This document shows positions 24,470 to 27,707 of a stretch of 32,000 bases of DNA, one piece after another. The notes under the pieces were generated by a model that was given only the letters and a program-made list of their open reading frames with translations, made no database searches and had not been told where the DNA came from. The translations under genes were made by a program, and so were the position numbers. Source of the DNA: Candidatus Methanoperedens sp. (GTDB taxonomy: Archaea > Halobacteriota > Methanosarcinia > Methanosarcinales > Methanoperedenaceae); NCBI GenBank assembly GCA_041494705.1, contig JBGQBI010000003.1, positions 60,001-92,000 on the forward strand, given 5' to 3'. Every line of letters starts with the position of its first letter. Position 1 is the first letter of the stretch.

Positions 24470-24751
24470 TTAACATGAACCTTCACACCCGCATGCAACC
24501 TCTTTCTGTCCCTTGACTGCAGCCAGCATCATTGCCGATGCACATCCAACGCCGCTGTCCACTTTTATTGCTTTTGTCGGGCAGTTAAGCTGGCAGGCTC
24601 CACATTCCATACATGCTTTTGGATTCACCAATTGTGCAATCTTTCCATTCGGACTGAATACACCGTGGGGACATACTGTACTGCACATCCCGCAGTTGAT
24701 ACACAATTTCGGATCGTATTTCAGAGTGGTTGAAGCATACGAATTAAACAT
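24470..24751 (-). CDS. hgcB: Mercury methylation ferredoxin HgcB
   Basis: Two CX2CX2CX3CP motifs (CINCGMCSTVCP, CMECGACQLNCP), then SGVGCASAMM and a Cys-rich tail ACGCEGSC. Immediately downstream of hgcA (1-nt gap), with GGAGG 7 nt before the ATG at 24751. The track start at 24790 would overlap hgcA. Confidence 0.85.
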   Translation of the reverse strand: MFNSYASTTLKYDPKLCINCGMCSTVCPHGVFSPNGKIAQLVNPKACMECGACQLNCPTKAIKVDSGVGCASAMMLAAVKGQKEVACGCEGSC

Positions 24752-24752
24752 A

Positions 24753-25853
24753 TCAAATTCCTCCCAATATTTTGATTGATGATAATACAATTACCAGGAT
24801 AATGCCAATTCCAAACATCCATGCCATTTTTGGCATATATGTAAATATCTCGCGTTTGACCCCGGTTACGGATGTAAATGTTGAAGAACCTGTGAAGTTC
24901 AGTGCCAGAAAAGCACTTATTGTCGGCATGACCAGCATATAAGTCAGGGCCCAACCATAGCGCAACCACAGGGTTTCATCCGTCATGCCATAAAATGAAT
25001 TCAGAGTAAATGGCAGTGCCATCAATCCTCCTATAAGGAATCCCTTGGTGCTAAAATCAGTAGTTGGTATCCATGGCAGCAGGGTTGGAAATAATACTAA
25101 CCCTGAGAAAGTGGCTGCGATGGCAGCGGCTGCCGCTGTGTAGTTTCCTGTAAGTGTTAAAATTACAGATGCGATCAACACAGGAATCAGGAAATTTTTC
25201 ATCTCCACAGGTATGAGGACAATTCTATCAGAGAGAGTAAATCGCACGCGGCGCATTTCTTCGGTTGCCTTATGTGTTTTCAGATATTCCGGCAGGTCGG
25301 CTGCTCTCACCGGACCGAATTCGACTTTGAATCCGCAGCGTCTCCTGACCTCCCGTGCATCCACTCCTGTTGCGCCCAACTGGGGAACGATCAGTGTGCT
25401 GTGATTGACAACATCATTAAGTCCCACAGCTTCGATCCGGTGTACCAGTTCATCAGTTCCAAATGTTCCCTTACCTGCGGCACACCAGACATTGATACCT
25501 TTTGTATCAAGCACAAGGATATAGCAATCATTACCATACAATGCGGATCTTAAGGCATCAAAGCTGAGTGTATAATTTGCGCTGACAAAAACAGGCGATT
25601 CTTTTGTGGGCTTTCCCATGGTGTAAAGCCCGGGTTCTATTAGATGCTGCTCGCGTTTCACACCCAGGCGTGCCATCAAATGATCCCGGCGATTTGCAGG
25701 TGTGATGTCTCCAGACGTGGATTTGATAACATGTGCCTTCCCGGATAATGTCGATATCGGCTCTGATCCACAGCCTGAAGAACCGCAACATGACCCGGTC
25801 TTAACAATTTCTTTTGTTATTGTTTCAGTCTGATTTTTCAATAAATTTTTCAT
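24753..25853 (-). CDS. hgcA: Mercury methylation corrinoid protein HgcA
   Basis: Carries the diagnostic cap-helix motif LVLDTKGINVWCAAGKGTFGTDELV. The N-terminal soluble corrinoid-binding domain is followed by a C-terminal domain of about 4-5 TM helices. 366 aa. Confidence 0.9.
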   Translation of the reverse strand: MKNLLKNQTETITKEIVKTGSCCGSSGCGSEPISTLSGKAHVIKSTSGDITPANRRDHLMARLGVKREQHLIEPGLYTMGKPTKESPVFVSANYTLSFDALRSALYGNDCYILVLDTKGINVWCAAGKGTFGTDELVHRIEAVGLNDVVNHSTLIVPQLGATGVDAREVRRRCGFKVEFGPVRAADLPEYLKTHKATEEMRRVRFTLSDRIVLIPVEMKNFLIPVLIASVILTLTGNYTAAAAAIAATFSGLVLFPTLLPWIPTTDFSTKGFLIGGLMALPFTLNSFYGMTDETLWLRYGWALTYMLVMPTISAFLALNFTGSSTFTSVTGVKREIFTYMPKMAWMFGIGIILVIVLSSIKILGGI

Positions 25854-25857
25854 AATT

Positions 25858-26433
25858 CTATCTCAACCATTTAACTTCGGGCTCAGTTCTTCCAGGCATT
25901 ACGGTTTCACCCCGAGGATATCCGAATATCAATGGAGCAACCGCTTTATAGCATGGGGGCGCGCCAAGCTCTTTCAATATCTTTTCATCCATGAGAGCAG
26001 GCATCACAAGCCCAATCCAGCAGCTGCCGATACCTTTGGAATGCGCTGCAAGCATCATGTTCTGTGCAGCCATCGCGCAATCCCAATCGGCAGTCACTGA
26101 TTTTTTATTTCCAAGTATTATTACAAGCAAAGGAGCATTGTAAAACAAGCTGGTGCCCTTTGTTTTGAGAAAAGAAATGAAACCTGGTGCTTTATTGGGA
26201 TTATTTACAATCTGTTCGGCAAGCGGTATCATTGCCTTTTTACCGTCTTCAGAGAGCTTGTTAATCACTTCTTTGTTTTGTATCACTAGAAAGCTCCATG
26301 GCTGCATATTCATACCCGATGGGGCGTATTTTGCGCAGTCTATCAGGAATTTTATATCCTCATCCGATACGGGATCTTCCTTATAATCCCGTACACTTCG
26401 CCTTGTTTTGATAATTTCAATTATATCTTTCAA
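25858..26433 (-). CDS. Nitroreductase-family flavoprotein
   Basis: IIKTRRSVRDYKEDPVSDEDIKFLIDCAKYAPSGMNMQPWSFLVI is the classic nitroreductase N-terminus. TTG start preceded by GGGTGA. 4-nt gap to hgcA. Confidence 0.8.
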   Translation of the reverse strand: MKDIIEIIKTRRSVRDYKEDPVSDEDIKFLIDCAKYAPSGMNMQPWSFLVIQNKEVINKLSEDGKKAMIPLAEQIVNNPNKAPGFISFLKTKGTSLFYNAPLLVIILGNKKSVTADWDCAMAAQNMMLAAHSKGIGSCWIGLVMPALMDEKILKELGAPPCYKAVAPLIFGYPRGETVMPGRTEPEVKWLR

Positions 26434-26474
26434 AATTATTCACCCTTATTTGACTTCGCTTAATCCCGGTTATT

Positions 26475-27296
26475 CTATTTTCTTCCCTGTACCCTGATAC
26501 TAATGACAGACTTCCCGATTTCTTTAACTTCATCTATCGGCATCTTGAGTTTCTCAATAATTGTTTTCCCAACCGGGTCATTAGACAAAAACTCAACCGG
26601 GAAACTCGTTTCTTCAAGCACCTGTACATCTCTGAAGCCTGCATTTTTTATTGTTTTTAAGTATTCATCTTTCTTTGTGGCACCGGCAACGCAGCCGATA
26701 TAAGCTTCGATGGATTCCCTGATGGGATCGGGAAGTTCCTTTAACAGCACAATATCTGAGACCATCAGCCTGCCGCCAGGCTTTAGCACCCTGAAAGCTT
26801 CTTTGAAAACCCTGCTTTTATCGGGTGCGAGGTTGATGACACAGTTTGAAATGACAACATCAACGGAATTATCAGCCGCCGGTAGATTCTCGATTTCCCC
26901 GAGCCTGAACTCTACGTTTGTGTAATTACCTTTTCTTGCATTGTCCCTTGCCCTGTCAATCATATCAGGCGTCATATCCACACCGATGACTTTCCCTTCT
27001 TTCCCTACCCTGTTGGCTGCGATGAAGCAGTCAAACCCGGCGCCGGAACCAAGATCGAGCACGGTTTCCCCTTCTTTTAACGAGGCAAGAGCTAGAGGGT
27101 TCCCGCAGCCGAGACCGAGATTTGCGCCTTCAGGTACTGAGCTTAGCTCTTCATCGTCGTATCCTATTCTTTTGCTGATTTCCGCTTCAATGCTGACACT
27201 TTTGCAGCAGGAAGCAGAAGGGGCGCAGGTGGAGCCTTCTCTGGCTATGCTGCCATATTTTTCCCGTACTGCTTTCTTTATTTCCTTTTGTTTCAT
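26475..27296 (-). CDS. arsM: Arsenite S-adenosylmethionine methyltransferase (ArsM-type)
   Basis: VREKYGSIA start, SAM motif VLDLGSGAGFDC, and Cys-containing blocks STCAPSASCCKS, LGLGCGNP, ISNCVINL and YIGCVAGA at the positions of the As(III)-binding and catalytic cysteines of ArsM enzymes. Confidence 0.85.
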   Translation of the reverse strand: MKQKEIKKAVREKYGSIAREGSTCAPSASCCKSVSIEAEISKRIGYDDEELSSVPEGANLGLGCGNPLALASLKEGETVLDLGSGAGFDCFIAANRVGKEGKVIGVDMTPDMIDRARDNARKGNYTNVEFRLGEIENLPAADNSVDVVISNCVINLAPDKSRVFKEAFRVLKPGGRLMVSDIVLLKELPDPIRESIEAYIGCVAGATKKDEYLKTIKNAGFRDVQVLEETSFPVEFLSNDPVGKTIIEKLKMPIDEVKEIGKSVISIRVQGRK

Positions 27297-27310
27297 TCAG
27301 ATACCTCCTT

Positions 27311-27586
27311 TTATTTCTCCAGTATATCCTTCATCACCGGTCCAAGCATACCCTTTACAATCTCTGCGAGCTCCTCGACCCTGATTAAAGAGATACAGTA
27401 TACTTCGCCGCCCTTTTCCCAGCTTATAACAGCCAGTTTATCTCCAGCATGAATTTTTGCCTTATCTCTGATATCTTTGGGAAGTACCGTTTGCCCCCTG
27501 TCATCTACAGTTATTACAGACTCTACCTTGCAGCAACCCATATTTGAAGGAGTACAGCAAGATTTGTTTTCATCTTTCTTTGCCAT
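27311..27586 (-). CDS. SpoVT/AbrB-fold DNA-binding protein with an N-terminal double vicinal-cysteine motif
   Basis: 91 aa. KSCCTPSNMGCCKVES is followed by VITVDDRGQTVLPKDIRDKAKIHAGDKLAV (swapped-hairpin AbrB/MazE/SpoVT pattern). GGTGA lies 4 nt upstream of the ATG. First gene of the hgc operon. Confidence 0.7.
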   Translation of the reverse strand: MAKKDENKSCCTPSNMGCCKVESVITVDDRGQTVLPKDIRDKAKIHAGDKLAVISWEKGGEVYCISLIRVEELAEIVKGMLGPVMKDILEK

Positions 27587-27612
27587 TTTATCACCTTGGA
27601 TGGTAAATTGTG

Positions 27613-27646
27613 TTCTGAATATTTAAACTTTTCTGATAAATCAGAA
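27613..27646 (-). promoter_or_regulatory. Candidate promoter/operator of the hgc operon: perfect 7-2-7 palindrome TTCTGAT-AA-ATCAGAA, TATA-like TTTAAATAT and a third TTCTGA half-site
   Basis: Plus strand ttctgaatatttaaacttttctgataaatcagaa. Palindrome at 27631-27646, AT box at 27619-27628, extra half-site at 27613-27618. The ATG is at 27586. Confidence 0.5.
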
Positions 27647-27707
27647 TAAACTGAAAATTCCCGCCAAAATCCGGGACTGAAGCAAACACCAGAATTAAAA
27701 GTTGTGC

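Follow-up and report, generated by a model that had tools for sequence, protein, structure and literature searches.

Genes of the joint cluster

We analyzed 32,000 nucleotides of DNA from Candidatus Methanoperedens sp. (GenBank assembly GCA_041494705.1, contig JBGQBI010000003.1, positions 60,001 to 92,000 of the forward strand), hereafter called the window and numbered from its first letter. In this window the arsenite methyltransferase gene arsM shares a gene cluster with the mercury methylation genes hgcA and hgcB, and the cluster is headed by hgcC, which encodes a Cys-rich protein of the AbrB/SpoVT type. A preliminary description, made from the sequence alone, had listed five minus-strand genes separated by gaps of 14, 41, 4 and 1 nt. 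The five open reading frames (ORFs) were recovered at the same coordinates and with the same gaps, in the order hgcC, arsM, nitroreductase-family gene, hgcA, hgcB (aa, amino acids; SAM, S-adenosylmethionine; FMN, flavin mononucleotide):

27311-27586, minus strand: hgcC, Cys-rich AbrB/SpoVT-type protein, 91 aa (NF040962, TIGR01439)
26475-27296, minus strand: arsM, SAM-dependent arsenite methyltransferase, 273 aa (NF008823), with a strong GGAGG ribosome-binding site
25858-26433, minus strand: nitroreductase-family FMN protein, 191 aa, TTG start (PF00881)
24753-25853, minus strand: hgcA, corrinoid protein of mercury methylation, 366 aa (NF040863)
24470-24751, minus strand: hgcB, ferredoxin with two [4Fe-4S] clusters, 93 aa from its ATG (NF040864); the mechanical ORF list starts it at the TTG at 24790
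24396-24401, minus strand: candidate archaeal terminator inferred from a T6 run about 70 nt past the hgcB stop codon, read from the sequence

Four of the five proteins (HgcA, HgcB, ArsM and HgcC) passed curated NCBIfam cut-offs; the gene identities and the tight operon layout first proposed are both supported. HgcA reached 424.9 bits on NF040863 (cut-off 275) and covered profile positions 2-323 of 325. It failed the rival models for the HgcAB-like fusion (209.6 bits, below 285) and for CdhE, the gamma subunit of the corrinoid iron-sulfur protein (73.9 bits, below 306). The cap-helix motif "GINVWCAAGKGTF" was read in the translation, where NVWCAAGK at residues 121-128 fits N(V/I)WCA(A/G)GK and residue 124 is the Cys ligand. 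Hydropathy placed hydrophobic segments of a C-terminal membrane domain at about residues 210-263, 300-321 and 336-366; the signature and the multi-transmembrane domain are hence both present, as had been noted. The N-terminal extension GSCCGSSGCG contains a vicinal CC at residues 22-23 (window 25785-25790), which is the non-selenocysteine form of the CU/CC N-terminal motif described by Haft and Gwadz. Its best database relatives were annotated HgcA proteins of Ca. Methanoperedens (80-90% identical). An identical HgcA was found on a Logan contig (L001; loci fetched for comparison carry L numbers) with the same layout as in the window.

HgcB passed NF040864 narrowly, with 106.3 bits against a cut-off of 99. 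Its ATG lies 1 nt past the hgcA stop codon, with GGGAGGA upstream. The translation confirmed the two Cys clusters, the GVGCASA motif and the Cys-rich tail that had been reported: CINCGMCSTVCP and CMECGACQLNCP place cysteines at positions 17/20/23/27 and 47/50/53/57, GVGCASA contains Cys70, which is the equivalent of the conserved C73 of strain ND132, and the tail holds cysteines 87/89/93. This tail reads CGCEGSC and is not a terminal vicinal CC.

HgcC scored 111.7 bits on NF040962, the NCBI model "HgcAB-associated protein HgcC" (cut-off 70), and 34.5 bits on the AbrB domain model TIGR01439 (cut-off 28.3); the AbrB-type family found here is therefore one that NCBI has already curated. The closest solved relative is the N-terminal domain of SpoVT. 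Among 37 distinct sequences of the HgcC family, 36 have at least two N-terminal cysteines and 34 have an internal vicinal CC. The window protein has the N-terminal part, CC-x7-CC, and its internal CC has degenerated to YC (residues 63-64, window 27395-27400). The internal pair is replaced by YC or FC in the window, L082 and L002, by FC in L002/L083 and by YS in L112, and all of these variants belong to a Methanoperedens subclade in which arsM follows hgcC. An antitoxin of the PrlF/MazE type was considered for HgcC and rejected, as no toxin gene adjoins it and its score on the PrlF model was 20.8 (cut-off 125); the true MazE that is paired with a PIN toxin in L108 scored only 35 on the HgcC model.

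ArsM reached 373.4 bits on NF008823 (cut-off 263). By alignment to CmArsM, C31, C64, C152 and C202 correspond to the catalytic cysteines C44, C72, C174 and C224, in agreement with the earlier statement that ArsM keeps all its cysteines, and the SAM-binding motif VLDLGSGAG is present. An identical ArsM is recorded on a JGI contig of 2,065,243 bp. The best relatives of HgcA, ArsM and the nitroreductase (70-100% identical) all came from Candidatus Methanoperedens.

The nitroreductase-family protein matched PF00881 with 127.1 bits (gathering score 23.5), passed no specific NCBIfam model, and had the uncharacterized nitroreductase 3ek3 as its best solved match. BluB and CblC, which process corrinoids, share the nitroreductase fold. 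This kinship, raised in the preliminary description, holds at the level of the fold family and failed at the level of the sequence: the BluB model TIGR02476 gave 70 bits against a cut-off of 150 and the solved BluB 2isj only 44 bits, and no CblC/MMACHC family appeared among the Pfam or NCBIfam matches at E ≤ 0.01. Both identities were rejected. The window protein is instead an operon-linked paralogue of a nitroreductase found throughout Methanoperedens, of which copies 70-77% identical sit in unrelated contexts, one of them in M. nitroreducens. One such paralogue (L096 5001-5576, P0180; JGI Ga0534157_0000001, 2,065,243 bp), 72% identical to the operon copy, lies between the genes for formylmethanofuran:tetrahydromethanopterin formyltransferase and an alpha/beta hydrolase. 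A 99% identical operon copy is probably on the same JGI contig; a genome with both would hold a housekeeping paralogue and an operon-linked one.

The ratio of nonsynonymous to synonymous substitution rates (dN/dS) was 0.08-0.30 for the five genes, indicating purifying selection on all of them, with 0.13-0.17 for arsM and 0.12-0.20 for the nitroreductase gene. The nitroreductase appears to be functional where it is kept, yet lost repeatedly, and its constant neighbor is arsM, not hgcA. Ribosome-binding sites were seen just upstream of arsM, the nitroreductase gene and hgcB, and the gene after hgcB converges on the T6 run.

The hgcC promoter and its predicted operator

The promoter region upstream of hgcC was read by eye as that of an archaeal host and is backed by conservation. 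It contains the following candidate features:

27612-27657, minus strand: operon promoter and operator, with four TCWGA boxes bracketing the TATA box; candidate, from the sequence
27651-27655, minus strand: TCWGA box TTCAG, read from the sequence
27631-27646, minus strand: perfect palindrome TTCTGATTTATCAGAA (TTCTGA-N4-TCAGAA), abutting the TATA box
27620-27627, minus strand: archaeal TATA box TTTAAATA, about 35 nt upstream of the hgcC ATG
27613-27619, minus strand: TCWGA box TTCAGAA, read from the sequence
about 27591-27595, minus strand: Shine-Dalgarno-like GGTGA, upstream of hgcC

Twelve hgcC promoters were compared by aligning the 130 nt that precede the gene: that of the window and eleven from ten other Methanoperedens loci (L100 gives two). 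About 55 bp were nearly invariant in all twelve, with unrelated flanks: TTTTCAGtaTATTCTGATTTATCAGAAAAGTTTAAATATTCAGAATACA. The "one recognisable promoter" previously placed before the first gene is therefore real and conserved, a TATA box next to a perfect palindrome. The palindrome occurs once in the window, where 0.15 sites would be expected by chance. It was found upstream of hgcC at a fixed distance in 25 of 42 genes when at most one mismatch was allowed and in 35 of 42 with at most two; the 1.02 Mb of fetched loci contained 31 sites in total (at most one mismatch).

The element extends well beyond the genus. The palindrome keeps a fixed spacing to the hgcC gene downstream of it in Methanoperedens, Methanoregula, Methanosarcina, Methanospirillum and Methanomassiliicoccales, and directly 5' of the TATA box in Methanoregula, other Methanomicrobiales and Methanosarcina. 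Repeats of the box were also present in bacterial hgcC promoters. Over 38 promoters, which are not independent samples, the box hexamers were enriched 22-fold (106 observed, 4.9 expected), and the pattern spans orders whose flanks share nothing. Placement of this kind is typical of DNA-binding proteins that regulate their own genes, and HgcC is predicted to bind here. No second operator/TATA element was found in the sequence of the five-gene cluster. Both L100 promoters and all four hgcC-arsM units that stand apart from hgcAB (described below) carry the operator together with the TATA box, which shows arsM and hgcAB, fused or separate, behind what appears to be the same control element.

Arrangements in Methanoperedens and beyond

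In Methanoperedens the genes of the cluster occur in several combinations. The full order hgcC-arsM-nitroreductase-hgcA-hgcB was found in the window, in L102 (GCA_049303315.1) and in L086; the L091 fragment has the nitroreductase gene followed by hgcA, and contigs of equal length in the HgcA and nitroreductase hit lists suggest that six further contigs carry both the nitroreductase and HgcA. Upstream of the cluster, L102 has GXGXG and MutS-like genes as in the window, but with a V_ATPase_I gene interposed. The order hgcC-arsM-hgcAB, without the nitroreductase gene, occurs in L002, L082 and L083. In L103/L104 a nitroreductase remnant of about 40 codons stands between arsM and hgcAB (L103 5862-5981, L104 1867-1971; 74-80% identical to residues 66-105). 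In the long-read L103, hgcC and arsM look frameshifted, which may be an assembly error; both are intact in the short-read L104. L003 has hgcC-hgcAB, and L105 has ArsR-hgcAB. In L105 (5624-7340; GCA_902386205.1), a Methanoperedens-related locus whose HgcA is 74% identical to that of the window, an ArsR-type HTH_5 gene overlaps the start of hgcA in place of hgcC, so that the "bacterial" arrangement is found within the same archaeal family.

L100 (3960-8930; ENA ERZ27279942 k141_7680266) combines two halves. A truncated hgcC of 61 aa, followed by arsM and the nitroreductase gene, precedes a second unit, promoter-full hgcC-hgcAB. The truncated copy is a duplicate with its own operator and TATA box, and acr3 and arsR converge on hgcB. 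Relative to the window, the synonymous divergence (dS) was about 0.48 for hgcC and the nitroreductase gene and about 1.0 for hgcAB, a mosaic that suggests shuffling of modules. The trees of ArsM and of the nitroreductase agree roughly with that of HgcA.

Units of hgcC-arsM, with no hgcAB in the flanks read, were found in M. nitroreducens (L106/L107), GCA_028715885.1 (L108), GCA_040961015.1 (L110) and GCA_012026835.1 (L112). The ArsM of L112 is 84% identical to that of the window. The two HgcC proteins from these units that were scored reached 132 and 127 bits on the HgcC model, above the window protein itself. Genes of the HgcC family thus precede arsM alone, hgcAB alone, or both. Because members also occur with arsM only, the description "directly upstream of hgcA" fails for the family as a whole, and in the window two genes, arsM and that of the nitroreductase, separate hgcC from hgcA. 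The recurring core in Methanoperedens is hgcC-arsM, around which the nitroreductase gene and hgcAB have been gained, lost and rearranged.

Beyond the genus, 80 hgcA loci, one genome per GTDB species, were searched with the five window proteins, and flanks of 4-10 kb were examined. HgcB followed HgcA in 77 of them. An HgcC-like gene stood directly upstream of hgcA on the same strand in 28 of 80, mostly in Methanomicrobiales, Methanosarcinales and Methanomassiliicoccales and in a few bacteria. True ArsM was directly upstream in three, L002 of Methanoperedens and L008 and L009 of Chloroflexi, and a relative of the nitroreductase adjoined hgcA in none of the other 79 of the 80. L008 and L009 read ArsR-ArsM-HgcA-HgcB and are an independent bacterial version of the order metalloregulator, arsM, hgcAB. 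A metagenome scan with HgcA alone gave 14 loci, many of them too short to show neighbors.

Arsenic genes were also present about 10 kb from the cluster, as an arsR/arsR/acr3 group (11873-14141, plus strand):

11873-12235 and 12672-13040, plus strand: two ArsR/SmtB-type regulators (NF033788, 56.7 and 61.4 bits, cut-off 55)
13107-14141, plus strand: ACR3 arsenite efflux pump (TIGR00832, 447.5 bits, cut-off 282.8)

The occurrence of arsM, acr3, arsC and arsR near hgcAB has been reported by McDaniel et al. 2020 (PMC7438021). At L111 (4001-4831; ENA ERZ25074855), the gene of an ArsM 70% identical to that of the window has no hgcC with it and follows pheS-pheT and ribosomal L35/L20 genes of bacterial type, a context that hints at transfer of arsM across domains.

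Proposed control of arsenic and mercury methylation by HgcC

We regard it as reasonably probable that the cluster serves Candidatus Methanoperedens as an operon for metal(loid) methylation, in which two modules have been joined under one regulator and the methylation of As(III) and of Hg(II) is expressed jointly from a single promoter that HgcC controls. HgcC, through its AbrB/SpoVT fold, would bind the TCWGA box array around the TFB recognition element and TATA box and repress its own promoter; the repression would be relieved when the N-terminal Cys cluster binds a thiophilic metal(loid), for which As(III) and Hg(II) are the most plausible candidates. One transcript would then give ArsM, which would methylate As(III) with SAM, and HgcAB, which would methylate Hg(II) via its corrinoid, also from SAM. 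The two would act in parallel on different substrates, not in series, and the nitroreductase would be a lineage-specific add-on that travels with arsM and is dispensable for HgcAB. Joint expression under one thiol-based sensor had been offered as the second of two possibilities in the preliminary description. It is the one favored by the Cys statistics of HgcC, the operator-plus-TATA arrangement, the occurrence of arsM, hgcAB or both behind HgcC, the Chloroflexi analogue and the nearby arsR and acr3.

Several observations weigh against joint control by HgcC. The internal CC that is nearly invariant in the family is YC here, so sensing by this HgcC may differ or be weakened. AbrB-fold proteins can also work through protein-protein contacts. 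The single transcript over the five genes is inferred from their spacing and the lack of a second operator/TATA element, and L100 presents the two operon halves as able to run from separate promoters. Most of the Methanoperedens loci compared are close relatives, so their conservation reflects shared ancestry in part. The role given to the nitroreductase, probably that of an FMN-dependent reductase in the arsenic branch or in general redox protection, is a guess. Finally, although rice paddies have yielded both genes and transcripts of Methanoperedenaceae hgcA, Hg methylation has never been demonstrated for Methanoperedens or any Methanoperedenaceae (PMC12997803).

HgcC might instead be a Cys-rich metallochaperone or substrate-delivery protein that passes As(III) or Hg(II) to the next methyltransferase, with another factor binding the boxes. 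The CC motifs of HgcC are similar to the N-terminal CC/CU of HgcA and to the HgcB Cys tail, hgcC is closely linked to the gene of the enzyme that follows and often overlaps hgcA, and the Pfam MazE/AbrB match of the protein falls just under the gathering score (24.1 versus 24.7). The TIGR01439 match to an AbrB DNA-binding domain lies above its cut-off, however, the closest solved relatives are the SpoVT and AbrB DNA-binding domains, and the boxes track hgcC whatever gene follows, across orders and domains, as is usual in autoregulation. We therefore consider a delivery protein in place of a regulator unlikely; the chaperone and regulator roles are not mutually exclusive.

That hgcC-arsM(-nitroreductase) and hgcAB are unrelated neighbors which drifted together in one genus seems to us quite improbable. 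The joint arrangement is restricted to Methanoperedens, where loss and rearrangement are frequent, hgcC-arsM stands alone even where ArsM is as close to that of the window as in L112, and the dS values against L100 are mosaic. Against this, the gaps are only 1-41 nt and no promoter element lies within the cluster, hgcAB-only loci of methanogens have the same regulator family and operator, the order regulator-arsM-hgcAB arose independently in Chloroflexi, and three direct arsM adjacencies among 80 loci would be far above chance for a single-copy gene.

The other possibility raised in the preliminary description was an extended hgc module, in which ArsM would transfer the methyl group to the corrinoid of HgcA, or the protein of nitroreductase fold would reduce or process that corrinoid; the spacing of 4 nt between the nitroreductase gene and hgcA and of 41 nt between arsM and the nitroreductase gene, the co-inheritance of the five genes under purifying selection in several Methanoperedens, and the shared fold and weak similarity to BluB speak for it. 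We judge it very improbable, and the proposal of accessory partners for HgcA is disfavored because of the distribution data (hgcA adjoined by the nitroreductase in none and by ArsM in only three of the 80 loci, the L100 nitroreductase separated from hgcA by hgcC and a promoter, hgcAB intact where the nitroreductase is a remnant or missing, and ArsM with all its As(III)-binding cysteines also occurring in hgcC-arsM units without hgcAB), the failed BluB and CblC tests, and the direct methylation of purified Cob(I)-HgcAB by SAM, with HgcB as the presumed electron donor (Zheng et al. 2024, PMC11588087). With SAM as the direct donor, a methyl-loading enzyme is not needed, and the earlier remark that the methyl donor to HgcA is not settled is outdated (PMC11588087).

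The closest known systems are archaeal hgcAB loci with an AbrB/PrlF/MazE-like gene (PMC10349881; NF040962). The same family opens the window cluster, on the same strand and in a Methanosarcinales lineage, but here hgcC is set apart from hgcA by arsM and the nitroreductase gene. Zhang et al. 2023 (ISME Commun, PMC10349881) described the gene of AbrB/PrlF type that stands upstream of hgcA in archaea, and the "putative regulator" that McDaniel et al. 2020 reported upstream of hgcAB in 112 genomes (PMC7438021) is probably the HgcC family. The preliminary description had cited only the ArsR-like neighbor in Pseudodesulfovibrio mercurii ND132; ArsR control of hgcAB in that strain stands (Gionfriddo et al. 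2023; preprint 10.1101/2022.10.17.512643), whereas the archaeal AbrB/PrlF type had been omitted though known. The window shares with arsR-hgcAB of ND132, and with the ars genes flanking hgcAB elsewhere (PMC7438021), a Cys-bearing metalloregulator at hgcAB and a link to arsenic genes that includes arsM and acr3. It differs in that the regulator has the AbrB/SpoVT fold, not the winged-helix ArsR fold, and in that arsM is inside the operon and not merely nearby.

The Anaerolineales/Chloroflexia loci L008 and L009 likewise place a regulator, arsM and hgcAB on one strand; they are bacterial, use an ArsR-type regulator, do not have the nitroreductase gene, and encode an ArsM only 51-56% identical to that of the window. 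With canonical ars operons, in which arsM is under ArsR, the window has in common the four catalytic ArsM cysteines and the presence of acr3 and arsR, 10 kb away here and directly adjacent in L100. Unlike these operons, the window arsM is behind an HgcC-type promoter and joined to hgcAB, and no arsC, arsA or arsD lies in the operon. With BluB and CblC/MMACHC the window nitroreductase shares the FMN nitroreductase fold family, but its best solved relatives are uncharacterized nitroreductases.

The searched literature contained neither the insertion of the nitroreductase gene, nor hgcC-arsM units free of hgcAB, nor the operator, nor a description of arsM paired with an AbrB-type gene; judged by listed titles and abstract openings, the work on arsM together with a nitroreductase concerned roxarsone nitroreductases only, and an arsM-nitroreductase pair like the present one has no precedent there. 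New here are the hgcC-arsM pairs without hgcAB in four Methanoperedens genomes and the conserved operator TTCTGA-N4-TCAGAA. We tentatively propose, at somewhat less than even confidence, that HgcC represents an uncharacterized class of Cys-based metal(loid) sensor, with the AbrB/SpoVT fold and a TCWGA operator, that brings ArsM and HgcAB into a single regulon in several orders of archaea and in some bacteria.

The control and purpose of hgcAB are long-standing questions in mercury biogeochemistry, and gene abundance is a poor predictor of methylmercury production. If HgcC is such a sensor, hgcAB would be a native component of a detoxification response to thiophilic metal(loid)s, and its expression in the environment might be predictable from the inducer of HgcC. 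The locus places a complete hgcAB, passing curated models and under purifying selection, in an anaerobic methane-oxidizing Methanoperedens. It gives no new helper enzymes for HgcAB; the lead is the regulator and its operator rather than extra enzymes. With its relatives it offers a candidate archaeal regulator, HgcC, with arsM, hgcAB or both as partners, a short DNA operator that can be tested, and, in a single genus, naturally occurring variants of the operon with and without arsM, the nitroreductase gene and hgcAB, which lend themselves to direct comparison.

Of the other genes in the window, the one that converges on hgcB (23517-24320, plus strand) lies in a low-GC stretch (0.37-0.39) and encodes a SAM methyltransferase resembling trans-aconitate methyltransferase (NF002463, 262 bits, below 297), with a weak TehB match; because it is missing downstream of hgcB in L102, it was placed outside the module. 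At the left end, 706-8023 (minus strand) holds genes for membrane subunits of the complex-I/Mrp type (Proton_antipo_M three times, NADHdh). At the right end, 30757-31191 (minus strand) is a PIN_2 toxin gene, which in L001 is preceded by a ribbon-helix-helix (RHH) partner gene.

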